Source: Oscillospiraceae bacterium (GTDB lineage Bacteria; Bacillota; Clostridia; Oscillospirales; Acutalibacteraceae). Taken from it: a DNA stretch of 64,000 bases. Below, one piece after another: positions 31,709 to 51,602 of this stretch (the stretch's first letter is position 1; the number at the start of each line of letters is the position of its first letter). Location: assembly GCA_015065585.1 (NCBI GenBank), contig SVQC01000003.1, positions 1,363-65,362 on the forward strand, written 5' to 3'. The translations under genes were made by a program, and so were the position numbers. Below the pieces are notes generated by a model, which had not been told where the DNA came from, searched no databases, and saw nothing but the letters and a program-made list of their open reading frames with translations.

Positions 31709-31721
31709 TGTTTTCTCCGAA

Positions 31722-34223: not shown

Positions 34224-34224
34224 A

Positions 34225-35604: not shown

Positions 35605-35637
35605 AAAAACGCTTCCTATTCTAAAAATTTCTTTTAT

Positions 35638-35905
35638 AAAAAAAGTCCCTGAAACAAAAGTTTCAGGGACGAAAATAAATTCGCGGTACCACCCTAATTA
35701 CCGTAATATACGGTCACTCGGTAAGACTCCAACAAGCCTTTAGCCATGGTAACGGGGCTAGCCGTAACCGCTTACTTTATATTTCGGCAGTTCTGCTCCG
35801 GAATGAGACTTACTTTATATCACCGTACCGACTCTCACCAACCGTCAGTTCTCTGAAAACAGCGCATATAAAGAATAATTCCTTCATCGCATTTAAAAAT
35901 TTTTA
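35638..35905 (-). promoter_or_regulatory. T-box riboswitch leader, specifier CUC (Leu)
   Basis: Minus strand shows the GA/K-turn GCGAUGAA..GGAGCA and the AG bulge AGAGA (35850-35854). The distal hairpin is ACUGAC-GGUUGGUGAGA-GUCGGU. The specifier loop ..GUAAGU-CUC-A-UUCC places the codon at 35805-35807. The T-box sequence AGGGUGGUACCGCG is at 35682-35695. The terminator GTCCCTGAAAC-ttttg-TTTCAGGGAC plus seven T is at 35638-35670. Confidence 0.88.
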
Positions 35906-35908
35906 TCC

Positions 35909-35937
35909 ATTATAACATTGACTTTTTGTTTTGTCAA
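35909..35937 (-). promoter_or_regulatory. Consensus sigma-A promoter (TTGACA-17 bp-TATAAT) of the Leu T-box operon
   Basis: Minus strand reads TTGACAaaacaaaaagtcaatgtTATAAT. The -35 box starts 15 nt after the ilvE stop. Confidence 0.75.
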
Positions 35938-35952
35938 CACTTATTTTGAAAA

Positions 35953-37017
35953 TTAATCAATAGGACAAGTCCAACCAAAAGTATCTTCAATATTACCCCA
36001 CTGTATACCGGTAAGAGTATCATAAAGATGCTGGGTAACCTCTCCGATTTTTCCGCCGCTAACCTGATGCTTTACACCCTTATAGCAAAGTTCGCCAATA
36101 GGAGAAACAACAGCGGCAGTTCCGCAACCCCAAGCTTCTTCAAGAGTGCCGTCATTCATAGCGGTCTCAAGCTCGTCAACGCTTAAAAGTCTTTCGCTAA
36201 CCTTAAAGCCTTCTTTTCTCAATACTTCAAGGCAGGATTTTCTTGTAATACCGGGAAGAATAGAGCCCGAAAGCATAGGAGTAACAATTTCCCCGTTAAT
36301 TTTGAACATTACGTTCATAGCGCCTACTTCTTCAATATACTTTCTTTCTACACCGTCAAGCCAAAGTACCTGTGAATAACCTTGCTTCTCTGCTCTTTCA
36401 CCTGCACGGTTACTGGCGGCATAGTTACCGCCGCACTTTGCATAACCTGTACCGCCACGAACAGCACGAACATCCTGGTCTTCTATCATAATTTTAACGG
36501 GGTTAATTCCCTCTTTATAATAACTGCCTACAGGAGAAGCTATTATAACAAAGGTGGCGTTATGTACGGCATGAACCCCTAAGGTTTCATCATTGCCGAA
36601 CATAAACGGGCGAAGATAAAGCGAAGTCCCGGGAGCACTTGGTGTCCAATCCTGCTCAAGTGCAACAAAGGTCTTAAGAGCCTCCATAGCATCTGCTTCA
36701 TCAAGCTGAGGAAGACAAAGTCTGTCAGCAGAGCTGTTCATACGGCGGATATTTTCAATAGGACGGAAAAGCTGAACCTTACCGTCTTTTCTTCTATAAG
36801 CCTTAAGGCCCTCAAAGATTTCACTGCCGTAATGAAGAACGGTTGAAGCGGGATGTAAAGAAATATTTTCAAAAGGAACTATTCTTGCGTTATACCAGCC
36901 CTTTTCTTTGGAATAGTCCATCATAAGCATATGGTCGGTAAAATATTTACCAAAGCCTAAAACACTGCTGTCAGGTTTTTCCTTAGGACAGGTTGTTTTT
37001 GTTATAGAAATATTCAT
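35953..37017 (-). CDS. ilvE: Branched-chain amino acid aminotransferase
   Basis: 354 aa, fold-type IV aminotransferase of the long Firmicutes type (..LHYGSEIFEGLKAYR.., GGTGYAKCGGNYAAS, GITR). Confidence 0.9.
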   Translation of the reverse strand: MNISITKTTCPKEKPDSSVLGFGKYFTDHMLMMDYSKEKGWYNARIVPFENISLHPASTVLHYGSEIFEGLKAYRRKDGKVQLFRPIENIRRMNSSADRLCLPQLDEADAMEALKTFVALEQDWTPSAPGTSLYLRPFMFGNDETLGVHAVHNATFVIIASPVGSYYKEGINPVKIMIEDQDVRAVRGGTGYAKCGGNYAASNRAGERAEKQGYSQVLWLDGVERKYIEEVGAMNVMFKINGEIVTPMLSGSILPGITRKSCLEVLRKEGFKVSERLLSVDELETAMNDGTLEEAWGCGTAAVVSPIGELCYKGVKHQVSGGKIGEVTQHLYDTLTGIQWGNIEDTFGWTCPID

Positions 37018-37035
37018 AATCTATTTCTCCTTATA

Positions 37036-37569
37036 TCAGTTTTCAGCACCAATCTGCATAGCCTTGCGGTTTATTTCAGCCATATCAGCACGTTTTGCCG
37101 ATATAACCTTTGCAAGAGCAGCATCAACGCTTTCCTTTTCATAGTCGTTAATTTTGCTGAGCACCTTACCTACAATAATCATATTGGCAAGCGTTGGCAT
37201 ATTATTATCACTTGCAAGCTTAGTTGCAGGGATATAGAACACCTTAACGTCATCTCTTAAAACTTTTCTTTCAATAAGAGTAGAATCAAGGAATATCATA
37301 CCACCGGGAGCAACGGTGGATTCATATTTATCAAGAGAAGGAAGATTCATTGCAATAAGCACATCAGGTTTTGAAACTATAGGAGAACCTACGGGCTCGT
37401 CACTAACGATAACGCTACAACTGGCTGTGCCGCCACGCATTTCAGGGCCGTAAGAAGGAAGCCAGCTTACCTGCTTATCGTCGATAAGACCTTTATAAGC
37501 CATAAATTTTCCGGCAAAAAGAATACCCTGACCGCCGAAACCCGAAAATAAGAACTGTGTAGTAGCCAT
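37036..37569 (-). CDS. 2-oxoacid:ferredoxin oxidoreductase, gamma subunit
   Basis: 177 aa starting [17 protein letters not shown], typical of POR/KOR/VOR gamma subunits. It is translationally coupled to the beta subunit. Confidence 0.88.
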
Positions 37570-38324
37570 TATTCTTCCCCCTTTTCTGCGCTTCTGTCTT
37601 TATAAACGCCAAGCGGATAGTAAGGAATCATTTTTTCGTCAATCCACTCTAAAGCCTTTTTCGGAGTCATGCCCCAGTTGGTAGGACAGGAAGAAATAAC
37701 CTCAACAAGCGAAAAACCTTTTCCCTCTATCTGATTTGTAAAGGCCTTCTTAATAGCCTTCTTGGCATTTTTAATATTTTTAACGTTATTAACGGTAACT
37801 CTTTCAAGGTACTCAGGACCGTCAAGCTTAGAAAGCATTTCGCAAACCTTGACGGGATAACCACAAAGATTAACGTCTCTGCCGTAAGGAGAGGTCTGAG
37901 TTACCTGACCGGGAAGTGATGTTGGAGCCATCTGACCGCCGGTCATACCGTAAATAGCATTATTAATAAAAATTACTGTGATGTTTTCATTACGGGCGGC
38001 GCTATGAACAGTTTCAGCCATACCGATAGAAGCAAGGTCGCCGTCGCCCTGATAAGTGAATACAATATGATTTTCGGGGTCGGCTCTCTTAACACCGGTT
38101 GCAACAGCAGGAGCGCGTCCGTGAGCAGCCTCAATCATATCACAGTTAAAATAATTATAAGCCATAACAGAACAGCCTACTGGGGCAACACCAATAGTTT
38201 TGCCTTCAATACCAAGCTCGTCAATAACCTCGGCAACAAGACGGTGAACTATACCGTGTGTGCAACCGGGACAATAATGCATAGGCACATCTGTAAGTGC
38301 ATGAGGTTTATCAAAAACTATCAT
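37569..38324 (-). CDS. 2-oxoacid:ferredoxin oxidoreductase, beta (TPP-binding) subunit
   Basis: CPGCTHG cluster ligands, the TPP motif YQGDGDLASIG..NNAIYGMTGGQ. Confidence 0.9.
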   Translation of the reverse strand: MIVFDKPHALTDVPMHYCPGCTHGIVHRLVAEVIDELGIEGKTIGVAPVGCSVMAYNYFNCDMIEAAHGRAPAVATGVKRADPENHIVFTYQGDGDLASIGMAETVHSAARNENITVIFINNAIYGMTGGQMAPTSLPGQVTQTSPYGRDVNLCGYPVKVCEMLSKLDGPEYLERVTVNNVKNIKNAKKAIKKAFTNQIEGKGFSLVEVISSCPTNWGMTPKKALEWIDEKMIPYYPLGVYKDRSAEKGEE

Positions 38325-39397
38325 TATTTTGCGCCTCCTTTTGCAGCTTCTTTAATAGCGTCAAGCACCTGCTCAGGTGAAGGAATCATACCGCCAGCAC
38401 GGTTGCAAAGGGTTACGGGAACCTTGCAAGAGGTAGCAAGACGCACGTCCTCTATCATCTGACCCATTGAAAGTTCAACAGATATTATACTGCTAACCTT
38501 GTCAACAGCCTTGCTGAAAACTTCTGTGGGGAAAGGCCAAAGGGTAATAGGTCTAATAAGGCCAACCTTTATACCTTGCTTTCTTGCTTCGTTAATTGCG
38601 TTTTTAGAAACACGGGCAGCAATACCGAATGCAGCAATACAAATTTCAGCATCGTCCATAAGATACTCTTCCCACATAGCTTCATTTTCTTCTATGTATT
38701 TATATCTCTCAAAACGTTCAAAATTAGACTTTTCAAGCTCATCGGGAACAAGGAAAAGAGAATTTACAATATTATGTTCGCGTTCCATCTTTGTACCGGT
38801 AGTTGCCCACGGCTTTGCTACAGGTTCGCTCGTTGCAAAATCAAGAGAAACAGGCTCCATCATCTGACCCATAGTACCGTCAGCCAAAATCATAGATGTC
38901 ATACGGTATTTATCGGCAAGGTCGAAGCCCTTAACGGTGAGGTCTGCCATTTCCTGAACAGAAGCAGGGGCAAGAACTATCATTTTAAAGTCGCCGTGGC
39001 CACCGGCTTTTGTGGCTTGGAAATAGTCAGACTGAGAAGGCTGTATACCTCCAAGACCGGGACCACCACGTTGTACATTGACAACAAGAGAAGGAAGGTC
39101 GGCACCTGCAAGATAAGAAAGACCTTCACCTTTTAAAGAAATTCCGGGACTTGAAGAAGAAGTCATAACACGTTTGCCGGTTGAAGCAACGCCGTAAACC
39201 ATATTTATAGCGGCAATTTCACTTTCAGCCTGAAGGAAAGTTCCACCAATTTTAGGCATACGCTTTGCCATATAAGCGGCAATTTCGGTCTGAGGAGTTA
39301 TAGGATAACCAAAGTAATGACGGCAACCCGCAACAATAGCTGCTTCGGCAATAGCCTCATTACCTTTCATTAATACTTTATCTGCCACTTTACTCAC
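38324..39397 (-). CDS. 2-oxoacid:ferredoxin oxidoreductase, alpha subunit
   Basis: 357 aa. MKGNEAIAEAAIVAGCRHYFGYPITPQTEI is the typical alpha-subunit N-terminus. Confidence 0.9.
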   Translation of the reverse strand: MSKVADKVLMKGNEAIAEAAIVAGCRHYFGYPITPQTEIAAYMAKRMPKIGGTFLQAESEIAAINMVYGVASTGKRVMTSSSSPGISLKGEGLSYLAGADLPSLVVNVQRGGPGLGGIQPSQSDYFQATKAGGHGDFKMIVLAPASVQEMADLTVKGFDLADKYRMTSMILADGTMGQMMEPVSLDFATSEPVAKPWATTGTKMEREHNIVNSLFLVPDELEKSNFERFERYKYIEENEAMWEEYLMDDAEICIAAFGIAARVSKNAINEARKQGIKVGLIRPITLWPFPTEVFSKAVDKVSSIISVELSMGQMIEDVRLATSCKVPVTLCNRAGGMIPSPEQVLDAIKEAAKGGAK

Positions 39398-39612
39398 TAC
39401 CTTTCTACCTTAATAATACAGTCAGGACACATTGTAGCGCAGAAAGCGCAACCGATGCAAGCGTCAATATTAGCCGCTTCTACGGGATGATGCCCCTTTT
39501 TGTTGATTTTGTCAGCTGCGAGAATTAAAACCTGTTTGGGACAGGCGTCAACACAAAGACCGCAGCCTTTACAACTATCAGTTTTAAAAGTTAACTTTGC
39601 CAAATTAAACAC
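39397..39612 (-). CDS. 2-oxoacid:ferredoxin oxidoreductase, delta subunit (2x[4Fe-4S] ferredoxin-like)
   Basis: 71 aa with two CxxCxxCxxxCP motifs (CKGCGLCVDACP, CIGCAFCATMCP). It overlaps the alpha start. Confidence 0.88.
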   Translation of the reverse strand: MFNLAKLTFKTDSCKGCGLCVDACPKQVLILAADKINKKGHHPVEAANIDACIGCAFCATMCPDCIIKVER

Positions 39613-39659
39613 TCCTTAGCAAATTTATATATTCGAAAGCACAAATTATTTTGTGTAAT

Positions 39660-40331
39660 CTATAAAATTTTGTCCTGCAATTTTAAGCAGAAAAGATTAT
39701 CAATTTTTCCTTGTAATTCACTGAACAATTCTTCCTTAACTGAAGTAAAAACAACGGGAAGATTAGTTACTTTGCTTATGCTATTTGCATATTCTACCGA
39801 ATACATTACGTCGTTTGCCGTAGTTTCCTCACCTAAATTCGAATTATTAACAATGCCCGTAAACTTCATTCTTGCCGCCGCTTCAATTTCACACATTACT
39901 TCTATTAATGAATCGACATCACGGGTCAAAGGGCGGAAGGAATTAACAACCATAAGCATTTCGTAATTGTTTTCCTCTTTAATTTTGTCGGAAATCCTGC
40001 CCAGTACCAAAGCGCCGCGGTCATCTCCGCCTATATCAAGAATACATTTTAAACTTTTATCATCAGTCACCGCGTACATATCCTGCGGAAGCGCGGGTAT
40101 ATCTACATTTGAATTAGCGTAATCAGAACATATAAGCCTTATGCCCTTCTGATTTAAAAGCTGACTGCTGTCCTTAGTTCTGAAATAAGGATTAACAATA
40201 TCAAGGTCGGCAAGGGCGACATTATCATAGGTTTCTTTGATTTTTACAGCCGCGTTAACTGCTATATTGGTTTTACCGCTACCGTAGTGTCCACAGAAAA
40301 GTATAAGCCGTTTATCAAACATAAATGTCAC
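39660..40331 (-). CDS. P-loop NTPase (SIMIBI class, MinD/ParA/CooC-like), function unknown
   Basis: Walker A-like motif GHYGSGKTNIAVN, then DLDIVNPYFR and DIGGDDRG. It sits inside the operon between the synthetase and the oxidoreductase genes, with gaps of 15 and 47 nt. Confidence 0.7.
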   Translation of the reverse strand: MTFMFDKRLILFCGHYGSGKTNIAVNAAVKIKETYDNVALADLDIVNPYFRTKDSSQLLNQKGIRLICSDYANSNVDIPALPQDMYAVTDDKSLKCILDIGGDDRGALVLGRISDKIKEENNYEMLMVVNSFRPLTRDVDSLIEVMCEIEAAARMKFTGIVNNSNLGEETTANDVMYSVEYANSISKVTNLPVVFTSVKEELFSELQGKIDNLFCLKLQDKIL

Positions 40332-40346
40332 CTGCCTTTGCCTTAA

Positions 40347-42635
40347 TTATAACTTATTACGCTGAATTTTTCCGCTGGTAGTTTTAGGAAGACTTTCCTT
40401 GAAAACTACGATACGGGGATATTTATACGGAGCAGTTCTGTCCTTAACGTATTTTTGAATTTCCTTTTTAAGTTCTTCTGTAGGTTCAGTTCCCGAAACA
40501 AGCACGATACTTGCCTTAACGACCTGTCCTCTGACTTCATCGGGAGCAGCAGAAACACCGCACTCAAGAACATAAGGAAGTTCCATAATAACGCTTTCTA
40601 TTTCAAAAGGTCCGATACGGTATCCTGAGGACTTGATAACGTCATCAACTCTGCCCACATACCAATAGAAACCATCTTCATCGCGCCAAGCGGTATCACC
40701 GGTATGATAATAACCGTCACGCCACGTATCCTTTGTTTTTTCCTCATCACCAAAGTAACAGGAAGCAAGACCGCAAGGCAAACCATTATTTATATTAATA
40801 ACGATTTCGCCCGTCTCACCGACAGGAACATCATTACCGTCTGCATCTATAATATGAACGTCATAAATAGGAGCAGGTTTACCCATTGAACCGATTTTGT
40901 GAGGCGCACCAGTCATATTACCTATTATCATGGTACTCTCGGTCTGACCGAAGCCTTCCAGAATCTGAAGTCCAGTAATCTTTTCAAACTGACGGTAAAC
41001 CTCGGGATTAAGCGCCTCACCCGCAGTAGTCATATGCTTAACCGAAGATAAATCATACTGAGAAATATCCTGCTTTATAAGCATTCTGAGCATAGTAGGA
41101 GGTGCACAGAAAGTGGTAATGTTATGCTTAGCAAACATAGGCAGTATCTCTGCCGCATCAAAACGGTCAAAGTCATATACAAATATGCCTGCCTCACAAA
41201 GCCATTGTCCGTAAATTTTACCCCAAGTAGCCTTAGCCCAACCCGTATCGGAAATGGTAAAATGAAGACCGTCAGGATCCACACAATGCCAATACTTAGC
41301 TGTATGAAAATGTCCTAGAGGATACTTATAATTATGAGCTGCAATTTTAGGATAACCCGAAGTACCCGACGTAAAATACATAAGCATAAGGTCTTCGCCG
41401 CAAGCCGTATCTTCAGTCCGGTTATAGTGAGTACTGTAAAGGGTGTATTCCTCATCGAAGGTACGCCAGCCATCTTTAGTACCGTTAACGATTAATTTAT
41501 TAACAAGCTGTGGATTGTTTTTTGCCGCAATATCAACCTGATTAGCAGTGTCGCCGTCAGCAGTACAGATAATTGTAGTTACTCCCGCTGATTTAAAACG
41601 GTAGTCAAAATCGTGTTCAAGCAACTGATTAGTTGCAGGAATTGCAATAGCGCCAAGCTTATTAAGGGCGATAATAGAAAACCAGAACTGATAATGCCTT
41701 TTAAGCACCAGCATAACGCGGTCGCCTTTTTTTATACCTATGGATTTAAAATAGTTAGCGCACTGATTAGAAGCTTTCATTATATCCTTAAAGGTAAAAC
41801 TGCGTTCTGCACCGTCCCTTGAAATATGAAGCATCGCTCGCTTATCAGGGGTTTTTTTAGCTATGGCATCAACTACATCGAAGCCGAAATTAAATTTATC
41901 GGTATTTTTAAACTGTACAGAAATTGGTGTACCGTTTTCATTCTCGGTAACGTCAACGTATTTATGGTAAACGCGCTCTTTGGTATCCTTAACTCTTACC
42001 TTAGGCTCTAAAACAGCCTTTGCGGGAATGAGTTCTGGAATAGGCTCGCCTGTAGGATTAAGAACTATAGCGTAGAAAAGACAGTCTTTTCCGCCGATTG
42101 CTATCATACCGTGAGCAACGTCACTATCGTAATAAATACTGTCCCCAGGGCCTAATATTTCCTTATGTTCACCTACCTGAACCATAAGCTGACCCTCAAT
42201 AATTATATCAAGTTCCTGACCCGCATGAGTGGTAAGCTCAATATCCTTACCCTGAGCTTCCTCGCTATAAATATTGCGAACGTAAAGAGGCTCGGCAATA
42301 CGATTCTGGAAAGCATAAGCAAGGTTATAATATGTCATACCGTGAGCCTGAGCAATTTTTTGACCCGAGCCTGCACGGGTAACGGTATAGGATTTAAGGG
42401 TAGGACTGTAACCCTCAATAATATCGGTTACATTAACATTAAGGGCTAAAGCGCAACGATAAATAAAGGCAAAATTTAAATCGCTGTTACCGTTTTCACA
42501 CTCTATATATTCACTTGTAGTTACAGCGGTTTTTTGTGCCATTTCCTCAACAGTAAGACCTTCGATTTCGCGAAGTTCTCTGATACGCCCCGCCATTTCT
42601 TTGATTTTAAAGTCTAATCCTGTAATCTGTTCCAT
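40347..42635 (-). CDS. Fusion protein: XRE-type HTH + cupin (PuuR-like) + ACSM/MACS-type medium/short-chain acyl-CoA synthetase (paralog A)
   Basis: The first ~70 aa are an HTH_3 domain (IRELREIEGLTVEEMAQKTAVTTSEYIECENG). Residues ~110-190 form a cupin (ELDIIIEGQLMVQVGEHKEILGPGDSIYYDSDVAHGM). The rest is AMP-forming synthetase: FTSGTSGYPK, ISDTGW, GFGQTE, YHTGDTAWRDEDGFYWYVGRVDDVIKSSGYRIGPFEIES, TAPYKYPRIVVFKESLPKTTSGKIQR. Confidence 0.88.
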   Translation of the reverse strand: MEQITGLDFKIKEMAGRIRELREIEGLTVEEMAQKTAVTTSEYIECENGNSDLNFAFIYRCALALNVNVTDIIEGYSPTLKSYTVTRAGSGQKIAQAHGMTYYNLAYAFQNRIAEPLYVRNIYSEEAQGKDIELTTHAGQELDIIIEGQLMVQVGEHKEILGPGDSIYYDSDVAHGMIAIGGKDCLFYAIVLNPTGEPIPELIPAKAVLEPKVRVKDTKERVYHKYVDVTENENGTPISVQFKNTDKFNFGFDVVDAIAKKTPDKRAMLHISRDGAERSFTFKDIMKASNQCANYFKSIGIKKGDRVMLVLKRHYQFWFSIIALNKLGAIAIPATNQLLEHDFDYRFKSAGVTTIICTADGDTANQVDIAAKNNPQLVNKLIVNGTKDGWRTFDEEYTLYSTHYNRTEDTACGEDLMLMYFTSGTSGYPKIAAHNYKYPLGHFHTAKYWHCVDPDGLHFTISDTGWAKATWGKIYGQWLCEAGIFVYDFDRFDAAEILPMFAKHNITTFCAPPTMLRMLIKQDISQYDLSSVKHMTTAGEALNPEVYRQFEKITGLQILEGFGQTESTMIIGNMTGAPHKIGSMGKPAPIYDVHIIDADGNDVPVGETGEIVININNGLPCGLASCYFGDEEKTKDTWRDGYYHTGDTAWRDEDGFYWYVGRVDDVIKSSGYRIGPFEIESVIMELPYVLECGVSAAPDEVRGQVVKASIVLVSGTEPTEELKKEIQKYVKDRTAPYKYPRIVVFKESLPKTTSGKIQRNKL

Positions 42636-42662
42636 AAATATATCTCCGTTTTTATGTGGGCG

Positions 42663-42945
42663 AATAAAAACACCCGCCCCAAAGTAATGCCTTTGAGACG
42701 AGTGGTAAATTAGATTTCACACCCGCGGTACCACTCAAATTGCGGAAATCCGCCACTCTTGGAATCTAACAATTCCTATGCATTAACGCAGCAATCACGG
42801 AGGGGTTCTACTCATATAAAATACTTTCTTCCCCTCAGCTCAGAAGCTACAAACACGAAATCCTATCCTGACGGTTTTCACCTGCCACCGTCTCTCTGAA
42901 AGAAGGTTTTTCACGTCCTCTTCGTCAAAGCCTTTACTGACTGCT
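42663..42945 (-). promoter_or_regulatory. T-box riboswitch leader, specifier read as GUA (Val)
   Basis: Minus strand shows GA motif GACGAAG..CUUCUGAGC, AG bulge AGAGAG (42892-42897) and distal hairpin ACGGU-GGCAGGUGAAA-ACCGU. The specifier loop ends ..UUU-GUA-G-CUUC, with the codon at 42848-42850. The T-box sequence UUUGAGUGGUACCGCG is at 42724-42739. The terminator ACUCGUCUCAAAG-gcauua-CUUUGGGGCGGGU plus a U-run is at 42663-42703. Confidence 0.82.
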
Positions 42946-42947
42946 AT

Positions 42948-42976
42948 ATTTTATCACAAAATTCAGACATTGTCAA
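42948..42976 (-). promoter_or_regulatory. Sigma-A promoter (TTGACA-17 bp-TAAAAT, TG-extended) of the Val-T-box operon
   Basis: Minus strand reads TTGACAatgtctgaattttgtgaTAAAAT. The -35 box begins 30 nt after the stop of the upstream paralog. Confidence 0.7.
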
Positions 42977-43006
42977 TATTTCTTTTATAAAGGCGAAAAT
43001 TATGTT

Positions 43007-45274
43007 TTAAAGTTTGTTTCGTTGTATTTTTCCACTGATAGTTTTTGGCAATTCATCCTTAAATACAACAATTCTGGGATATTTATAAGGTGCGGTATGT
43101 TCCTTAACATATACCTGTATTTCTTTCTTAAGTTCTTCGGTAGGTTCTGTACCCGGAAGAAGCACGATACTAGCCTTAACGACCTGTCCTCTTACTTCAT
43201 CGGGAGCAGCAGAAACACCGCACTCAAGAACATAAGGAAGCTCCATAATAACGCTTTCTATTTCAAAAGGTCCGATACGGTATCCTGAGGACTTGATAAC
43301 GTCATCAATACGGCTGACATACCAGAAATATCCATCCTCATCGCGCCAAGCTGTGTCACCTGTATGATACATACCGTCATACCAAGCTTCATTTGTCTTT
43401 TCGTCATCAAGATAGTACTCCTTGAAAAGACCACAAGGAATACCTTCCTTGGTGCGAACAACAATTTCGCCAACCTCACCGTCAGCAACGCTGTTACCAT
43501 AAAGGTCAACTATATCAATATCATACTGAGGTGATGCTTTACCCATAGCGCCGATTTTGGGTGTAGTACCACTTAAGTTAGCAATAGTAAGGGTAGTTTC
43601 GGTCTGACCGAAGCCTTCCATAATCTGAAGTCCCGTAGCTTCCTCAAACTGACGGAAAACCTCAGGATTAAGAGCTTCACCTGCAGTTGTCATATGATGA
43701 ATTGAAGAAAGGTCATACTTTGAAAGGTCACTCTTTACAAGCATTCTGAGCATTGTAGGCGGAGCGCAGAAGGTAGTAATATTGTATTTGGCAAACATAG
43801 GCAAAATTTCATCTGCGTCAAAACGGTCAAAATCATAAACGAAAACCGCGCCTTCACACAGCCATTGTCCGTAAAGCTTACCCCATAGGGATTTACCCCA
43901 ACCCGTATCAGAAATAGTAAGATGTAAACCGTCTCTTTCACAACAATGCCAATATTTTGCAGTAACATAGTGACCTAAGGCGTAGGTATGCTTATGAGCC
44001 GCCATTTTTGGATTACCGGTTGTTCCTGAAGTAAAGAACATAAGAGCAATGTCCTCACCGCAAGAAGCATTTTCTTCTCTTTCGTATTTACCGGTATAAA
44101 GCTTATATTCACCGTCAAAATCGTGCCAACCGTCACGCTTTCCGCCAACCAAAATAAGATTTTTAACGCTTTCACAGTTTTTTGCGGCGCGCTGAGCAAT
44201 TTCTGCAGTATCACCGTCAGCGGTACAAACAAGAGCATTTACCCCTGCTGCATTAAAGCGGTATTCAAAATCGTGTTCCTTAAGCTGATTTGTAGCCGGA
44301 ATAGCCACAGCACCGATTTTGTGCAGTGCTACCATACAGAACCAAAACTGATAATGCCTTTTAAGAACAAGCATTACTTTATCGCCTTTTTTAATTCCTA
44401 AAGAAGTAAAATAGTTAGCGCACTGGTTAGAAGCTCTTTTTATATCCTTAAAGGTAAAACGGCGTTCGTTTTTATTCTTATCAATATGTAGCATTGCTAG
44501 TTTGTCAGGATATTTATCGGCAATTTCATCAACAATGTCAAAGCCGAAATTGAAAATATCTGTATTTTTAAAGTTTATATCAAGAAGCTCTCCGTTTTCG
44601 TTTTCGGTAGTATTAATAAACTTTTCACAAACAAGCTTTTCAGACTTTTTAGCAGAAGCAATACTCTTTCTAACAGTTTCTTCCTTAGTATTATCACCAG
44701 ATAGTACCACAGCACAGAAAACACAGTCTTCCCCACCGATAGCTATCATTCCGTGAGGTGTAGAGCTGTTATAGTAAATGCTGTCACCCTCGTTCAAAAT
44801 TTCGGTATGAGCGCCAATCTGTACCTTTAAGGAACCGCTTAAAACAATATCGAACTCCTGACCCGAGTGGGTAGTAAGCTGAATAGGTTTGTTCTGCTGA
44901 GCAGCGGAATATTCATATCTTACCCAGTAAGGCTCGGCAATTTTATCTCTGAATTTAGGAGCAAGATTTTTAATATCGATACCGTCTTCTTTAGCGGTAG
45001 ACTGACCCATTCCCTTTCTTGTCACAGTATAGCTAGAGAGACGGGCGGAATGGCCCTCTAAAAGCTCGGTTAACTCTACGTCAAAAGCAAGTGCGCACTT
45101 GTGAATAAAGGAGAACGGAATATCGGCATTAGCAGTTTCGTAAGAAATATATTTATCAGCACCAACTTCGGTTTTTTCAGCCATTTCCTCTATAGACCAA
45201 CCCATAATTTCGCGCATTTCCTTTATACGCGCGGCGATTTCCAGTAATTGTTCTTTTGCTGTGTTGGTTTTCAT
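43007..45274 (-). CDS. Fusion protein: XRE-type HTH + cupin + ACSM/MACS-type acyl-CoA synthetase (paralog B)
   Basis: Same three-domain layout as 40347-42635. By eye it is roughly two-thirds identical overall, the C-terminal ~110 aa are nearly identical and the HTH-cupin part is more diverged. Motifs: FTSGTTGNPK, ISDTGW, GFGQTE, GDTAWRDEDGYFWYVSRIDDVIKSSGYRIGPFEIES. Confidence 0.88.
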   Translation of the reverse strand: MKTNTAKEQLLEIAARIKEMREIMGWSIEEMAEKTEVGADKYISYETANADIPFSFIHKCALAFDVELTELLEGHSARLSSYTVTRKGMGQSTAKEDGIDIKNLAPKFRDKIAEPYWVRYEYSAAQQNKPIQLTTHSGQEFDIVLSGSLKVQIGAHTEILNEGDSIYYNSSTPHGMIAIGGEDCVFCAVVLSGDNTKEETVRKSIASAKKSEKLVCEKFINTTENENGELLDINFKNTDIFNFGFDIVDEIADKYPDKLAMLHIDKNKNERRFTFKDIKRASNQCANYFTSLGIKKGDKVMLVLKRHYQFWFCMVALHKIGAVAIPATNQLKEHDFEYRFNAAGVNALVCTADGDTAEIAQRAAKNCESVKNLILVGGKRDGWHDFDGEYKLYTGKYEREENASCGEDIALMFFTSGTTGNPKMAAHKHTYALGHYVTAKYWHCCERDGLHLTISDTGWGKSLWGKLYGQWLCEGAVFVYDFDRFDADEILPMFAKYNITTFCAPPTMLRMLVKSDLSKYDLSSIHHMTTAGEALNPEVFRQFEEATGLQIMEGFGQTETTLTIANLSGTTPKIGAMGKASPQYDIDIVDLYGNSVADGEVGEIVVRTKEGIPCGLFKEYYLDDEKTNEAWYDGMYHTGDTAWRDEDGYFWYVSRIDDVIKSSGYRIGPFEIESVIMELPYVLECGVSAAPDEVRGQVVKASIVLLPGTEPTEELKKEIQVYVKEHTAPYKYPRIVVFKDELPKTISGKIQRNKL

Positions 45275-45292
45275 AATAATCTCCCTTTCATT

Positions 45293-45575
45293 TTAAAAAA
45301 TAAAACCCGTCTCAAAGAATTACTTTGAGACGGGTGTAACAACATACACTCGCGGTACCACTCAAATTGCGGGAATCCGCCACTCTTGGAATCTAACAAT
45401 TCCTATGCCTTTACGCAGCAATCACGGGAAACGTCTACTCGGTATACTTTCGGGCTTCCGGCTCAGAAGGGATGGGTCTTGTAAGAATTCGTATTACCGG
45501 TTTTCAGCAACCACCGGCTCTCTGAAAATACAAAAACTTGACCGTCTTCGTCATAGCTTTTAAAAATTTATGTAA
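45293..45575 (-). promoter_or_regulatory. T-box riboswitch leader, specifier read as AUC (Ile)
   Basis: Minus strand shows GA motif GACGAAG..CUUCUGAGC, AG bulge AGAGAG (45518-45523) and distal hairpin CCGGU-GGUUGCUGAAA-ACCGG. The specifier loop ends ..CCC-AUC-C-CUUC, with the codon at 45471-45473. The T-box sequence UUUGAGUGGUACCGCG is at 45351-45366. The perfect 13-bp terminator ACCCGUCUCAAAG-uaauu-CUUUGAGACGGGU plus UUUUAUUUUUU is at 45293-45335. Confidence 0.82.
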
Positions 45576-45577
45576 AA

Positions 45578-45606
45578 AGTATAACACCACTTTTTACACT
45601 TGTCAA
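45578..45606 (-). promoter_or_regulatory. Sigma-A promoter (TTGACA-17 bp-TATACT) of the Ile-T-box unit
   Basis: Minus strand reads TTGACAagtgtaaaaagtggtgtTATACT. The -35 box begins 7 nt after the GH2 stop codon. Confidence 0.7.
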
Positions 45607-45613
45607 GAGTTTT

Positions 45614-48028
45614 TTATTTTACATCGTAGATACTGCGAAGTCTTATTGTTTTAGGCTCACCTGAAAGTACCTTAACTGTTTTACTTCCGGCGTTCATATC
45701 GAAATAGTTATCGCTGAGAATGAAGTCGCTGTCAGGTGAATCTATTTCAACATATTTAGTGAAACAATCAGCATAAACAGTTATCTCATCACCGTTTATT
45801 TCATATCTAAGTTTCGGGTCACCAAAATTATAATGTTTATGAGCAGTAAAGAGCGCATTACCTCCTGAAACCACCTCACCGTTTACAGTAAAGGAATAGC
45901 TTATATAATTTTCGGTAACGTCGGTCTTATTAAAGTCAATATTATCAAGCCAATAGGAAGAAAGACTAGGAACGGTAATTTCTTTGCTACCCTCTTTAAT
46001 TATATCGCATTTTGAATTTCTAAGTTGCCAGTTTACAGTACCAGTCACATCGTTAAGAGTTTCGTTTGTAACGTTAAGTCTTGCCTCAGTCGTATAGTCA
46101 TAAACTTCGGGTTGCATAACAACGCAGGTTCTTGTATCGGTTTCGCCAATTTCGTGGCAAGAAATCATAATAGGAGCGTAAAATCGCTTTGTACCGTACT
46201 GAAGCGCTTTATATCTGCCAAAATAGTCAATACTCGACCAAGAAACGCCCGGCCATATATCGTTAAGCTGCCAGTATAGCGCGCCCATGCAACGACCTCT
46301 GTTACGGCGAAGATGTTCTATCTCATAACCCATAGCATATAGCTGCATAAGCTGTGTAGCGTAAATAAATGTAGAAAAATCAGAGGGATATTTGAAATGG
46401 TCAGCCATATAGCTTATGAGTGCCTTGTTAGCTCCCGGTCGCCTTTGATGCATTTCCATAGTTCTGCTGAAAGGATTTTTCTCCTCGGGCAGTAAAAACG
46501 TATCTATGGTTTTTTCGCTGGGATACGACTGGAAAGAAAATTCGCTTAAATATCTGAAATAGTGCTTACGGTACTCATTAACGGGTTTAGCATTGCCCCA
46601 AACCTCGTAATAATGACAATCACCCATATCCTCGCTCTTAGTATCTATAAAAGAACCCTGAGAACTAGGAGATGCAAAAATGTACGGAACGTAAGGACAT
46701 ACCTCTTTAGCAACATCGGGTAAAATATGCTCAAATATTTTAATGTAAGAACTTTTGCGCTTGTTTTTGCCCTCGTCGTTCCACCAGAATTCTATTGCTT
46801 CCTCTAATTCATTGTTGCCCGAAATAACGGCAAGGGACGCGTGATGACGGATTCGCGTAAGGTTCTGTCTTACTTCCTCGCAAATATTATTTATCATATC
46901 CTCGTTATCGGGAACGTTCATACATGCAAACATTAAATCATGGAAAATTAACAGACCCAGCTCGTCACACAAATCATAAAAATAATCGTCAGGAAAATAG
47001 CCGCCGCCCCAAACTCTTATGGTATTGAAATTACAATCCGCACAAGCCTTTAAAAGTTTTTCGGTACGCTCTTTGTTTATTCGTGAGTAAATATTATCTT
47101 CAGGAATATAGTTAGAACCCATTGCAAAAATGCGCTTACCGTTTACTTCGTGACAAAAGCTTATTCCGTACTCATCCTTCTCTCGTACAAGCTTCATTTC
47201 TCTAAGACCGATACGGAGTTTACGGCTGTCACTAATATTTTCATTTTCTATAAGACTTACGGTAAAATCGTAGAGATTTTGCTTGCCGTAGCCTCTGGGC
47301 CACCAAAGCATAGGCGACTCTATTTCATTTTCTTTGTTAGGAGTAAGTTCAAAATGTTGTCCGACAGGTGAAGTAACACTAACCTTTATTTCTCCCGCAG
47401 AAAGCTGTGATTTAACTCTTGGGTTAATAAAAACCTTGCCATCACGATGATACTGTAAAATTTCAACCTCACTAAGCCTGTCCGAATCAACGGTTAATAG
47501 AGAAATCTCTCTCCAAATACCTGCATCAGGAAGCGCAGGGCCCCAATCCCAACCCATCATACTGTGAGCTTTTCTTAAATGAGGGAAGCCGCGCATACAG
47601 TTACTTACACCTAAAACAGGGTCTTCTATATCTTTTCTTTTTATGTACTTGGTAGGAGAAGCAAAAGAAGCAGAAATACTGTTTTTTCCGTCTTTTAGCA
47701 CATCGGTAACATCAAATTCATAGGTTTTATGCATATTATCGGTATTTCCAATAACTTTGCCGTTAAGGGTAAGGCAACAAAGAGTGTCAAGGCCCTCGCA
47801 TCGTAAAATTAGTTTACTGTCCCCTATTTTAGAAAAATCAAATTCTCTGCTAAAAGAAAAATCATTTTCCATAATTTTAACAGCTTCAAGCTCGTTATCT
47901 CTGTAAAATGGGTCGGGTATTAAAGCGTTGCCAAGCAAAAAAGAATAAACGGAGCCTGGAACTTTGCCATAACAACTGTAACCGCCGCCCTCCATTTTCC
48001 ATTGACCGCACAGTGAAAAGGTTTTCAT
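45614..48028 (-). CDS. Beta-mannosidase (glycoside hydrolase family 2)
   Basis: ~800 aa. The N-terminus (LCGQWKM..VPGSVYSFLLGNALIPDPFYRDNE) and GH2 catalytic region (WGGGYFPDDYFYDLCDELGLLIFHD, ISGNNE) are typical of bacterial GH2 beta-mannosidases. The likely start is the ATG at 48028. The ORF track extends to a GTG at 48037. Confidence 0.88.
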   Translation of the reverse strand: MKTFSLCGQWKMEGGGYSCYGKVPGSVYSFLLGNALIPDPFYRDNELEAVKIMENDFSFSREFDFSKIGDSKLILRCEGLDTLCCLTLNGKVIGNTDNMHKTYEFDVTDVLKDGKNSISASFASPTKYIKRKDIEDPVLGVSNCMRGFPHLRKAHSMMGWDWGPALPDAGIWREISLLTVDSDRLSEVEILQYHRDGKVFINPRVKSQLSAGEIKVSVTSPVGQHFELTPNKENEIESPMLWWPRGYGKQNLYDFTVSLIENENISDSRKLRIGLREMKLVREKDEYGISFCHEVNGKRIFAMGSNYIPEDNIYSRINKERTEKLLKACADCNFNTIRVWGGGYFPDDYFYDLCDELGLLIFHDLMFACMNVPDNEDMINNICEEVRQNLTRIRHHASLAVISGNNELEEAIEFWWNDEGKNKRKSSYIKIFEHILPDVAKEVCPYVPYIFASPSSQGSFIDTKSEDMGDCHYYEVWGNAKPVNEYRKHYFRYLSEFSFQSYPSEKTIDTFLLPEEKNPFSRTMEMHQRRPGANKALISYMADHFKYPSDFSTFIYATQLMQLYAMGYEIEHLRRNRGRCMGALYWQLNDIWPGVSWSSIDYFGRYKALQYGTKRFYAPIMISCHEIGETDTRTCVVMQPEVYDYTTEARLNVTNETLNDVTGTVNWQLRNSKCDIIKEGSKEITVPSLSSYWLDNIDFNKTDVTENYISYSFTVNGEVVSGGNALFTAHKHYNFGDPKLRYEINGDEITVYADCFTKYVEIDSPDSDFILSDNYFDMNAGSKTVKVLSGEPKTIRLRSIYDVK

Positions 48029-48141
48029 AAATATCACTCTTTCTAAAAGTATTTACATTTACAGTATATTATGATATTATTGTAAAAACAATGTAATATC
48101 CGACGATTTATTTATACTATATTACGATTTTGGTGATTTTT

Positions 48142-48915
48142 ATGAACATAAAAACCTTAGGTTACGATTTTCCTCATAAAAAGGGAGAATTCTGTAAGAA
48201 GAGAATCTGCGATTTTTATTCCGTATGCTGTTTTTCTACACCGTTTCTATATTTAAAGGACGGAGAACTAATAAAAGGAAAAGCCGGTGATATTCTTATA
48301 AACCCACCGGGCGTTATGGTATACCATGGACCAGAGGATAATGCCGAAAAAGGCTTTGTTAACGATTGGTTTCAAATTATAGGTGAAGATTTTAAAGAAC
48401 TTCTTGAAAAATTCCCATTGCCCTTAAATATTGCTTTTAGTGTCAGTAAAAAAGATTTTTTAAGAAAATACGCCGTTAAAATCACCCGTGAATTAAGTTA
48501 TGATTTTGAAGGTAAAGAGCAACTTATTACCTGTTATATTACCGAAATGATAATTGATATTTACCGAAACCTTAAAAATCAAAGAAAAGAAACAGAAAAA
48601 ATAAGCAATATAATCAACGTACATAACGAGATAGTCTTAAACCCTGCAAGAAACTGGACGCTAAAAGAAATGACATCGTTAAGTGGTTATTCCGTAAGTC
48701 GATTTTGTGAACTTTACAAAAAGACCTATGGTATCTCTCCTGTTAACGCCGTTATATACGAAAGAATTGAAATGGCAAAAAAATTGCTTATTTCCGGTCA
48801 GGCTTCGGTGTTGGTTGTTTCAGAAGCCTGTGGTTTTTCTACCGTTAACTACTTTTCAAAGTGTTTTAAAAATCTTACAGGCTATACTCCATCCTCCTAT
48901 CGAAACAGAAAATAA
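48142..48915 (+). CDS. AraC family transcriptional regulator
   Basis: Cupin-like N-domain plus C-terminal AraC HTH (WTLKEMTSLSGYSVSRFCELYKKTYGISPVNAVIYERIEMAKKLL..FSTVNYFSKCFKNLTGYTPSSYR). It is divergent from the GH2 gene. I prefer the ATG at 48142. Confidence 0.88.
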   Translation: MNIKTLGYDFPHKKGEFCKKRICDFYSVCCFSTPFLYLKDGELIKGKAGDILINPPGVMVYHGPEDNAEKGFVNDWFQIIGEDFKELLEKFPLPLNIAFSVSKKDFLRKYAVKITRELSYDFEGKEQLITCYITEMIIDIYRNLKNQRKETEKISNIINVHNEIVLNPARNWTLKEMTSLSGYSVSRFCELYKKTYGISPVNAVIYERIEMAKKLLISGQASVLVVSEACGFSTVNYFSKCFKNLTGYTPSSYRNRK

Positions 48916-49015: not shown

Positions 49016-49090
49016 GGTGACCCATCGGAGAATCGAACTCCGGACACCATGATTAAAAGTCATGTGCTCTACCGGCTGAGCTAATGGATC
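49015..49090 (-). tRNA. tRNA-Lys (anticodon UUU), CCA encoded
   Basis: Minus strand reads GATCCATTAGCTCAGCCGGTAGAGCACATGACTTTTAATCATGGTGTCCGGAGTTCGATTCTCCGATGGGTCACCA. It folds as a cloverleaf with a 7-bp acceptor stem (one G-U), D arm, anticodon stem CATGA/TCATG with loop CUUUUAA, and T arm CGGAG-TTCGATT-CTCCG. Confidence 0.93.
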
Positions 49091-49193: not shown

Positions 49194-51602
49194 TTATCTT
49201 ACTACTATATTTACAAGCTTCTTGGGAACATAAAGTTCTTTGACAATAGTCTTTCCTTCAAGCTGTCCTGATATACCATCCTGCTCTTTAGCAGCCTTAA
49301 TAGCGTCTTCAGCGCTTATATCAGCAGGTATATCCATTCTGCCTCTGAGCTTACCGTTAACCTGTATACCAATCTCAACGGTAGACTCTATACATTTAGC
49401 TTCGTCATACTCGGGCCACTTAGCCTGATTAAGCCTGCCTTCAAATCCAAGTTCCTCCCAAATTTCTTCGGTAATATGAGGTGCAAAGGGATTTAAAAGG
49501 AGAAGAAGTGTTTTATATTCAGCGCGGTTGATTTCATTACCAACGGTATTGATAAATGCCATCATTGAAGCAATAGCGGTGTTCATCTTAAGGCTTTCAA
49601 TATCGTCGGTCACCTTGCGAATCATCTTGTGAATTTCACTCTCGTAATCTTTTCTGTAGCTATCACCGTCAATAACGTTTTCCTTAAGCGCCCAAACTCT
49701 GTCAAGAAAACGCTTACAACCCTTAATTGAAGAAGTACTCCAAGGAGCAGCCTTTTCAAAGTCGCCGATAAACATTTCGTAAAGTCGCATAGTATCTGCG
49801 CCGTACTCATTGATAATATCATCGGGATTAATTACGTTGCCTCTTGATTTAGACATCTTTTCTCCGTTTTCACCGAGAATCATACCGTGGCTTGTACGCT
49901 TAGCATAAGGTTCCGGATTAGGAACAACACCGATATCATAAAGGAATTTATGCCAGAAACGGCTGTAAAGAAGATGAAGGGTTGTATGCTCCATACCGCC
50001 GTTATACCAGTCAACAGGGCCCCAATATTCAAGAGCCTCCTTGCTTGCAAGTTCTTTATCATTGTGAGGGTCACAATAACGAAGGAAATACCATGAAGAA
50101 CCTGCCCACTGAGGCATAGTATCGGTTTCTCTTACTGCCTTGCCGCCGCACTTGGGACAGGTAGTATTAATCCACTCGGCAATATTAGCAAGAGGTGACT
50201 CACCGTTGACGGTAGGCTCATAAGACTCAACCTCAGGCAAAAGCAGAGGAAGTTCACTTTCATTTAGGGGAACATATCCGCAACAGTCACAGTAAACCAT
50301 AGGAATTGGTTCGCCCCAATAACGCTGACGGGAGAAGACCCAGTCACGAAGCTTATAGTTGGTTTTTCTCTCGCCTATTCCCTTTTCGGTAAGGAAGTTC
50401 TGTATAGCAACCTTTGCTTCTTCAACGCTCATACCGTCAAGAAAACCCGAATTAACCATTACACCGGTAGCACAATCGGTAAAGGCTTCTTCCTCAACGT
50501 TTCCACCCTTTACAACCTCGATAATAGGAAGATTAAACTTTTTAGCAAATTCCCAGTCACGAGTATCGTGAGCAGGTACAGCCATAATAGCGCCTGTGCC
50601 ATAGGAAATCAAAACATAATCAGAAATAAAAATCGGAATTTCAGTATTGTTAACTGGATTTATAGCCTTAACGCCTTTAAGCATAACACCGGTTTTATCC
50701 TTAGCAAGCTCAGTTCTTTCAAAATCAGATTTCTTAGCCGCTTCGTTTTTATATGCAATAACTTCATCAATATTAGAAATTTTATCTGCCCATTTATCAA
50801 TTAAAGGATGCTCAGGTGAAAGTACCATATAGGTAGCACCGAAAAGAGTATCCGCACGGGTAGTATAAATTTCAAAAACATCACCTGTCGTTGCGGTAAA
50901 TTTTACCTGAGTACCATAAGAACGACCAATCCAGTTTTCCTGCTGAATTTTTACTCTTTCGATAAAATCAACGGTTGCAAGGTCATCAACAAGCTTCCCT
51001 GCATACTCAGTGATTTTCAGCATCCACTGGCTCTTTTCCTTATGTACTACTTCGCTTCCGCAACGCTCGCATACGCCGTTTACAACCTCTTCATTAGCAA
51101 GAACACACTTACAGGAGGTGCACCAGTTTACAGCCATTTTCTTTTTATATGCAAGACCTTTTTCAAAAAGCTTAAGGAAAATCCACTGTGTCCACTTATA
51201 ATAAGCAGGGTCGGTGGTATTGATTTCTCTGTTCCAGTCAAAAGAAAAACCTAAAGATTTAAGCTGACGCTTAAAGTTTTCCACGTTATTCTTAGTAACT
51301 ATTTCGGGGTGGATATGATTTTTAATAGCGAAGTTTTCGGTAGGAAGGCCGAAAGCATCCCAACCCATCGGATAAAGCACATTGTAGCCCTGAAGACGTT
51401 TTTTACGTGCAACAATGTCAATAGCGGTATAGGAACGGGGATGACCTACGTGAAGTCCCTGACCTGAAGGATACGGAAATTCAACAAGACCGTAAAACTT
51501 GGGTAAGGTATAATCGTTTTTAGCTGCAAAAGGCTGTTCCTTATCCCAAATATCCTGCCATTTCTTTTCAATTTCACTAAAATTATATCTATCCTGCTTC
51601 AT
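49194..51602 (-). CDS. leuS: Leucine--tRNA ligase
   Basis: 802 aa with HIGH ([14 protein letters not shown]), KMSKS ([10 protein letters not shown]) and a CP1 editing domain. Confidence 0.97.

Follow-up and report, generated by a model that had tools for sequence, protein, structure and literature searches.

How do two neighbouring riboswitches come to be almost the same RNA in one half and clearly distinct in the other, and what do they control? This question is raised by a 64,000-nucleotide (nt) metagenome contig stretch of an uncultured gut bacterium of the Oscillospiraceae (GenBank assembly GCA_015065585.1, contig SVQC01000003.1, positions 1,363 to 65,362 of the forward strand; hereafter the window), in which two T-box leaders stand in tandem, each with its own promoter and each followed by a gene for a putative acyl-CoA ligase. 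Coordinates are those of the window, and all features lie on the minus strand unless the plus strand is given. In the order of transcription, module B comprises leader B (45323..45563) and ligB (43007..45274; 755 amino acids, aa), and module A comprises leader A (42691..42937) and ligA (40347..42635; 762 aa). We consider it probable that leaders B and A are a paired isoleucine and valine T-box, that the genes behind them serve the salvage of branched-chain acids, and that the two modules have undergone concerted evolution. For comparison, one genome per species was scanned, which gave 80 related loci, almost all of them in metagenome-assembled Clostridia genomes from the guts of sheep, goat, yak, deer, buffalo and similar sources. 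The identical ligA protein was found on at least 24 contigs.

Both leaders matched RF00230, the T-box family of Rfam. Leader A scored 95.6 bits, above the gathering score of 93, and leader B, when its region was searched alone, aligned to the full-length model with 81.7 bits (E 3e-18); orthologues of leader B in four related loci (L001, L002, L023 and L052) passed the gathering score with 95.6-102.1 bits. Stem I of leader A (42836..42933) is closed by the base helix GAAG 42923..42920 / CUUC 42846..42843, and Stem I of leader B (45459..45559) by GAAG 45549..45546 / CUUC 45469..45466, with the AGAGA bulge and the distal loop above it. The shared Stem I base that a sequence-only reading of this locus had pointed out (GACGAAG / CUUCUGAGC) occurs in leaders A and B alike and hardly varies among 111 related leaders, in which the elements UGA...GAAG / CUUC.GAGC, AGAGA and GGUG are likewise nearly invariant. 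Across these 111 leaders the base and distal helices were 98.8% paired, with two-sided changes at all 11 pairs. The same reading had called the change in the distal helix, ACGGU/ACCGU in leader A and CCGGU/ACCGG in leader B, compensatory, and this was borne out by two-sided changes in all 5 of its pairs.

The 3' half of leader B (45351..45427) contains Stem IIA/B with the F-box, an extra hairpin, Stem III and the T-box sequence, with UGGU at 45360..45357; the 3' half of leader A (42724..42800), which is the homogenised tract discussed below, includes UGGU at 42733..42730. Both leaders contain the T-box sequence AAUUUGAGUGGUACCGCG and carry AGUGG in it, and UGGU occupied the T-box bulge in 128/128 leaders. 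Leader A ends in a 14-base-pair (bp) terminator hairpin (42671..42704) followed by a U-run and leader B in a 13-bp hairpin (45305..45335) followed by UUUAUUUUUU, and the two terminators share the strand CGUCUCAAAG. Near-consensus promoters with extended -10 boxes precede both leaders, at 45578..45606 in module B (TTGACA, 17-nt spacer, TATACT, TG before the -10 box; 11/12 matches) and at 42948..42976 in module A (TTGACA, 17-nt spacer, TAAAAT, TG before the -10 box), where the promoter begins about 30 nt past the ligB stop codon. When 35500..45700 was scanned for promoters and terminators, the top three of each were those of leaders A and B and of a third T-box further downstream. Terminator hairpins dominated the predicted folds of the leaders, and the complete antiterminator was absent from the minimum free energy (MFE) folds of truncated leaders. 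This is expected for T-boxes without tRNA, so covariance-model alignment was used for the antiterminator pairs, and in both leaders these pairs align to the RF00230 model. RNAalifold, applied to a MAFFT alignment of the 111 Stem I sequences, recovered the distal hairpin alone; the middle of Stem I was misaligned, and for this reason the named structure was tested instead of the RNAalifold consensus.

The two leaders differ in the codon that they present. Alignment with the covariance model, a comparison proposed earlier, placed GUA (42850..42848, followed by G 42847) at the Rfam specifier position of leader A and AUC (45473..45471, followed by C 45470) at that of leader B, in the same register and directly 5' of the CUUC strand. 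These are the codons that had been called by hand-folding. Counted column by column in the alignment of 111 distinct Stem I sequences (51 A-type, 60 B-type), A-type leaders read GUA in 43/51 and GUC in 8/51 cases, both of them valine codons, with G (45) or A (6) as the next base. B-type leaders read AUC in 60/60, and the next base was A in 29, C in 23 and G in 8, never U. The earlier doubt about the C that follows AUC in leader B is settled by this count, and the aligned B-type orthologous group evidently does not conserve a purine after its predicted specifier. A B-type leader (L026) and 11 A-type leaders inspected by eye all fit GUAG or AUCG. The 4-bp helix abutting the codon was paired in every leader (100%), and each of its 4 pairs showed compensatory changes (e.g. 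GGAG/CUCC, GGGG/CCCC); the percentage is inflated, as the leaders had been collected by a pattern that demanded this pairing, but the compensatory changes are not. Sliding the partner strand by 1-3 columns lowered the pairing to 24-54%. When folding was constrained to keep the base helix, the MFE folds of 56/60 B-type and 41/51 A-type leaders left the codon and its following base unpaired, and the B-type specifier loop was mostly a small 2 x 5 internal loop (AC / YAUCN). The UGGU of the bulge fits the A73 discriminator base of tRNA-Ile and tRNA-Val. Together, these results confirm, at the level of sequence and predicted structure, a valine specifier in leader A and an isoleucine specifier in leader B.

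Compared to class I T-boxes (RF00230; Bacillus subtilis tyrS, glyQS), both leaders share the GA/K-turn base, specifier loop, AGAGA bulge and distal loop as well as the F-box/Stem IIA/B, Stem III, UGGN and mutually exclusive antiterminator and terminator, and the predicted RNA mechanism is canonical. In contrast to those T-boxes, they have a small specifier loop without the GAA S-turn, no conserved purine after the isoleucine codon and the extra hairpin between F-box and Stem III (42776..42761 in leader A), and their targets are acyl-CoA ligases, an oxidoreductase and an aminotransferase rather than aminoacyl-tRNA synthetases, classical biosynthesis genes or transporters. The extra hairpin, GGAAU-UGUUAG-AUUCC at 42761..42776 and 45388..45403, is treated as an insertion by Rfam; many related leaders keep it, and its arms change in a compensatory manner (GGAGC...GCUCC, GGCUU...GAGCC).

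Leaders A and B could be aligned over their whole length, and the likeness was unevenly distributed. The stretch from CCGUGAUUGC to ACCGCG (42800..42724 in leader A, 45427..45351 in leader B) showed 3 mismatches in 77 nt by pairwise alignment, so that the earlier estimate of about 4 in some 76 was essentially right, and Stem I was 55% identical, in agreement with the divergence of upper Stem I that had been noticed. In 60-nt sliding windows the identity rose up to 0.95 in the 3' stretch and was 0.45-0.65 in Stem I. None of the observed leader similarities is due to chance. The proteins encoded by ligA and ligB are 65% identical, and among the related loci the ligases form two orthologous groups, A-type and B-type, with the second ligase of L054 having 66% identity to both paralogues. 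About 45 of the 80 loci show the gene order T-ligB-T-ligA-Ploop-vor-ilvE, where T is a T-box leader, often followed by T-leuA-fusion-amidohydrolase. These comparisons support the view that the promoter-leader-gene modules A and B are paralogous. The duplication is common to dozens of species and is, by all signs in these loci, old. We suggest that promoter, leader and gene would have been duplicated in tandem, after which Stem I would have evolved separately in each paralogue. The sequence-only reading had proposed a duplication followed by respecification of the tRNA sensor; the specifiers do differ (valine and isoleucine) and the enzymes have diverged, but the duplication is an old one, and respecification may have run in either direction.

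Purifying selection on a shared expression platform could by itself account for the near-identity of the 3' halves, with no gene conversion. The 3' half is indeed extremely conserved across species, being 100% identical between leader A of the window and leader A of L002, whose proteins are 86% identical, and the tract consists mostly of functional T-box elements. Selection of this kind predicts, however, that leaders A and B are equally alike within and between genomes. Among 24 genomes that have leaders A and B and a standard-length tract, the within-genome A-B identity of the 3' half was 0.874, compared to 0.770 for A-B, 0.772 for A-A and 0.775 for B-B between genomes, and 0/10,000 permutations reached the within-genome value (p < 1e-4). 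The 3' half thus carries no A- or B-specific signal, yet it is more alike inside a genome, and variable Stem III sequences are shared within genomes (W, L009 and L013). Stem I, which served as an internal control for composition, showed no such excess in 39 genomes (A-B identity 0.532 within and 0.530 between genomes, p 0.34; A-A 0.606, B-B 0.651).

The same pattern was found at synonymous sites in a coding tract near the 3' ends of the two genes (ligA 40500..40648 and ligB 43160..43308), a putative gene-conversion tract of 149 nt in which each of the 3 mismatches falls on a third codon position. Identity at third positions was 94% within the tract compared to 49% upstream and 42% downstream of it. 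The ligA tract was 98% identical to that of ligB in the window and 82-89% identical to its orthologues, with no orthology signal, and across 58 genomes the within- minus between-genome identity peaked at this tract (+0.10 to +0.11). Given these results, we regard selection alone as an unlikely explanation. The likeness of the 3' halves within genomes, which Stem I lacks, is best explained by recurrent gene conversion between the two modules that spares the decoding domain, presumably because selection eliminates any conversion extending into Stem I. The region from Stem IIA/B through the T-box sequence, together with the 149-nt tract, would have been repeatedly homogenised in each genome. The notion that the 3' half merely stayed identical was not upheld: its likeness reflects family-wide constraint plus homogenisation within genomes, in which Stem I takes no part.

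That T-boxes can be duplicated and change their specificity, either by themselves or along with the gene they regulate, has been on record since 2008 (Wels et al., PMC2494555, modes ii and iv), and PMC3766115 cites Vitreschak et al. 2008 for it as well. As in the described cases, leader and gene appear to have been copied together, the specifier has switched and the enzyme has diverged; unlike them, the copies are still adjacent, the change is confined to Stem I and the other half appears gene-converted (24 genomes). No description of half-and-half concerted evolution in a riboswitch pair was found in the searchable literature. A retuned duplicated switch is an already known pattern, and the new details are the genes controlled and the half-and-half likeness of the copies. 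Tandem T-boxes in one leader, as in Bacillus thrZ and the trp operons of some Firmicutes, repeat the same specificity in front of one gene. The present pair resembles them in having more than one T-box on one transcription path, and differs from them in that its two T-boxes share neither promoter nor gene nor specificity.

What the pair controls was approached through the ligases. Both ligA and ligB encode HTH_19, Cupin_2, AMP-binding and AMP-binding_C domains. The earlier description of the locus as a duplicated T-box and synthetase module holds for the paralogous modules but not for the enzyme, which is an AMP-forming acyl-CoA synthetase and not an aminoacyl-tRNA synthetase. A valyl- and isoleucyl-tRNA synthetase pair (ValRS/IleRS) was considered for the two open reading frames and ruled out by Pfam and PDB searches. 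Public annotation of the ligases is generic ('AMP-binding protein', 'cupin domain-containing protein', 'acetyl-CoA synthetase'). The closest solved structure to ligA is 3ETC (E 4.5e-178), with the ligase domain (residues 227-760) aligned end to end; 3ETC is MacsMa of Methanosarcina acetivorans, which prefers 2-methylbutyrate (PMC10455477). The top NCBIfam model for both ligases is the equivalog MbcS (NF047394), named for an enzyme of Staphylococcus aureus that activates 2-methylbutyrate and isobutyrate, and isovalerate poorly (PMC10026030). The ligase domain is thus related to those of MacsMa and MbcS, which both activate small branched acids (PMC10455477, PMC10026030). Unlike MacsMa and MbcS, the proteins studied here carry an N-terminal fusion of about 225 residues, exist as two paralogues under different T-boxes and likely have a role in amino-acid rather than lipid synthesis. 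The fusion, an XRE-type helix-turn-helix (HTH) and a cupin domain spanning residues 1-225, is present in both ligases and in all relatives.

The tryptophan of the ligase motif KATWGK aligns with that of KCVWGK in MacsMa, the pocket residue Trp259, and is conserved (the numbering allows for a chain offset of 23, which Gly459-Tyr460-Lys461 and Arg490 bear out; PMC10455477). We found 11 alignment positions that cleanly split all A-type from all B-type proteins. Ten of them are in the HTH-cupin part, within ligA residues 46-133. The single one in the ligase domain lies 4 residues before the Trp259-equivalent and is Ala in A-type (100%) and Gly in B-type (100%) proteins; MacsMa has Gly. The bulkier Ala in the valine-linked ligase may suit a smaller substrate, and we infer that ligA would act on isobutyrate and ligB on 2-methylbutyrate. 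The distribution of the discriminating positions suggests that the paralogues may differ mainly in sensing or DNA-binding, not in catalysis.

The genes 3' of ligA are on the same strand with no terminator between them. A 223-aa P-loop NTPase-like protein (39660..40331) comes first; it belongs to no curated family, with weak CbiA/ParA/SRP54 matches only and with no NCBIfam family and no Pfam hit in public gene calls. Nearly all related loci keep its gene in this place, with ligA on one side and the oxidoreductase genes on the other, and the protein may assist the oxidoreductase as an accessory or maturation factor. By curated models and gene adjacency, the next four genes (37036..39612) encode a four-subunit 2-oxoacid:ferredoxin oxidoreductase of the VOR type, made up of a 71-aa 2x[4Fe-4S] ferredoxin subunit (39612..39397), a POR_N/PFOR_II subunit (39397..38324), a thiamine pyrophosphate (TPP) subunit (38324..37569) and a gamma subunit (37569..37036). 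The model NF005507 'VorB' was passed with 543.8 bits (cut-off 399), and the models of the other subunits remained under their cut-offs. A branched-chain amino acid aminotransferase of the IlvE type follows (35953..37017), which passes NF009897 (479 bits, cut-off 307) and TIGR01123 (398.5, cut-off 250).

This gene set points to a T-box-controlled salvage of isobutyrate and 2-methylbutyrate into valine and isoleucine as its likely function. Two canonical transcription-attenuating T-boxes would act one after the other, each equipped with a separate promoter and terminator. Under isoleucine shortage, the anticodon of uncharged tRNA-Ile would pair with AUC of leader B and allow read-through into ligB; under valine shortage, uncharged tRNA-Val would pair with GUA of leader A and allow expression of ligA, the P-loop gene, the oxidoreductase and the aminotransferase. 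By stabilising the antiterminator, the uncharged tRNA would in each case cause the ligase for the corresponding branched-chain fatty acid to be made. The ligases would first convert isobutyrate (ligA) and 2-methylbutyrate (ligB) to their CoA thioesters, the VOR-type enzyme would then reductively carboxylate the acyl-CoA to the 2-oxo acid, and the aminotransferase would finally turn the 2-oxo acids into valine and isoleucine. In the rumen, isobutyrate is a valine precursor and 2-methylbutyrate an isoleucine precursor, and leucine is formed by carboxylation and amination of isovalerate (PMC7356843). The gene set resembles this rumen synthesis (PMC7356843) in combining activation, reductive carboxylation and transamination, the three steps required, and the relatives are mostly from ruminant gut; the classical rumen work is biochemical. 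The searchable literature yielded no paper on a gene assignment or T-box control for the rumen isoacid pathway, and nothing relevant on T-box control of branched-chain acyl-CoA ligases or VOR.

Variation among the related loci provides natural controls for this regulatory logic, since comparison of the 80 related loci, which had been suggested earlier, revealed both single-ligase and single-T-box arrangements. In five loci (L017, L020, L021, L050 and L069) a single AUC T-box precedes ligB-ligA with no second leader, and wherever the contig is long enough the oxidoreductase genes lie behind both ligases, which suggests that the later enzymes serve both branches. Other loci have one ligase, either of the A-type with a valine T-box (L015, L018, L019, L036, L042-L044, L062 and L063) or of the B-type with an isoleucine T-box (L072-L080). 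In those with the B-type only, the oxidoreductase genes stand directly behind the isoleucine T-box and ligase.

The ligases could instead supply branched-chain acyl-CoA primers for membrane fatty-acid synthesis. Their top NCBIfam model is that of S. aureus MbcS, whose role is the initiation of branched-chain fatty-acid synthesis (PMC10026030, PMC11167679). We consider this improbable as the main function, in view of the predicted control by uncharged tRNA-Ile and tRNA-Val and of the company that the ligases keep in nearly all loci, namely the VOR-type oxidoreductase and the aminotransferase, the two remaining steps of the amino-acid route. It is possible that the acyl-CoA products serve both amino-acid and lipid synthesis.

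Another possibility is that leader B reads serine. The true specifier would then be UCN, shifted from AUC by one base in the 3' direction, and its synonymous third position would be the variable base. The bases found after AUC would then give UCA, UCC and UCG, which are all serine codons, and T-boxes seldom have a pyrimidine behind the codon. On the other side, the paralogous A leaders fix the register with GUA or GUC and a purine before the same helix, and a one-base shift would turn their codon into UAG or UAA; the post-codon base of leader B would become the first C of the helix, which is paired in every leader. AUC is invariant, UGGU fits A73 and not the G73 of tRNA-Ser, all genes of the operon are related to branched-chain amino acids, and in five loci the AUC leader is the sole T-box before both ligases. 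We therefore hold a serine register to be very improbable and keep the isoleucine assignment. Also very improbable is a catabolic cluster that would take valine and isoleucine through aminotransferase and oxidoreductase to acyl-CoA and acids: VOR-type enzymes are oxidative in amino-acid fermenters, but T-boxes turn genes on with uncharged tRNA, i.e. under shortage of the amino acid, AMP-forming ligases generally do not serve to free acids from CoA esters, and a leucine T-box with a leuA-like gene lies next door.

Several points weigh against the salvage interpretation and the T-box assignments on which it builds. Leader B of the window, at 81.7 bits, is under the Rfam gathering score; the specifier loops are small and without the usual GAA S-turn element, and C follows AUC in leader B, where a purine is usual. 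The pairing percentage of the helix next to the codon is inflated as described above, and the comparative data come nearly all from metagenome-assembled genomes. The MbcS model gave scores of 429.8 and 440.6 bits, far under its cut-off of 850, by which ligA and ligB appear to be relatives and not equivalogs of MbcS; they are also about half identical to MacsMa, estimated by eye from the alignment. Because of these low scores and this degree of identity, the substrates of the ligases are a prediction, and their split between ligA and ligB is drawn from the specificity of each T-box and a single Ala/Gly difference. Only the valine T-box stands in front of the oxidoreductase and aminotransferase genes, so that isoleucine shortage alone would induce ligB and leave the remaining steps dependent on basal read-through.

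A third T-box (35662..35896; 132 bits), with its own consensus promoter (35937..35909), follows the aminotransferase gene. Its specifier is CUC-A (leucine), and CUC was found in 27/28 parsed cases of this leader; its 3' half is not paralogous to the A/B pair. In its region (30902..35937) this T-box precedes a divergent leuA-like gene (459 aa), which is under all LeuA cut-offs, a gene for an 840-aa fusion of a xylose-isomerase-like TIM barrel and a fatty-acid CoA ligase, and a gene for an Amidohydro_2 protein. The leuA-like, fusion and amidohydrolase genes co-occur in more than 30 loci, and could be the isovalerate/leucine branch of the same salvage system.

In the closest relatives, leuS is the direct upstream neighbour of the cluster. 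In this part of the window (45614..48037 and 49194..51602), the cluster is separated from leuS by a glycoside hydrolase of the GH2 family (beta-mannosidase-like), a divergently oriented AraC-type regulator gene (48130..48915, plus strand) and a tRNA-Lys with the anticodon UUU (49090..49018). No T-box at the Rfam gathering score was found upstream of leuS.

A perfect 10-bp inverted repeat, TGTAAAAAGT-N8-ACTTTTTACA (approximately 45570..45597), flanks the -10 box of promoter B (p 0.005 compared to shuffles); it may act as an operator or form a DNA/RNA hairpin. In the same place, a shorter repeat of 6 bp and of another sequence, AAGAGT-N5-ACTCTT, is found in the closest relatives, and the repeat is absent in more distant loci. 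When an operator for the fused HTH was sought as an inverted repeat in the promoters, p <= 0.05 was reached in 13% of B and 6% of A promoters, and such a repeat is not general across loci.

A broader reading that joins these parts, which we put forward tentatively and as a good deal less secure than the explanation outlined at the start, is that of a three-branch tRNA-gated salvage regulon built from modular switches. The isoleucine, valine and leucine T-boxes would each gate the CoA ligase for the matching fatty acid, the expression platform would be kept uniform by gene conversion with selection holding only Stem I apart, and the HTH-cupin part would sense supply, either of the fatty acid or of the amino acid. 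If true, HTH-cupin sensing would integrate demand (tRNA charging) and supply on one gene.

For the rumen pathway known for sixty years, this locus provides a concrete regulated gene set, by which valine, isoleucine and probably leucine would be made from isobutyrate, 2-methylbutyrate and isovalerate. The T-box specifiers in effect label each ligase paralogue with its predicted acid, which is relevant to the 'isoacid' feeding of ruminants. They also suggest that the purine after a specifier can be replaced by C across an orthologous group. The locus, moreover, amounts to a natural experiment in about 45 replicate genomes, in which one half of a riboswitch appears to have been overwritten by its paralogue and the other has not, and this would map the determinants of specificity to Stem I.

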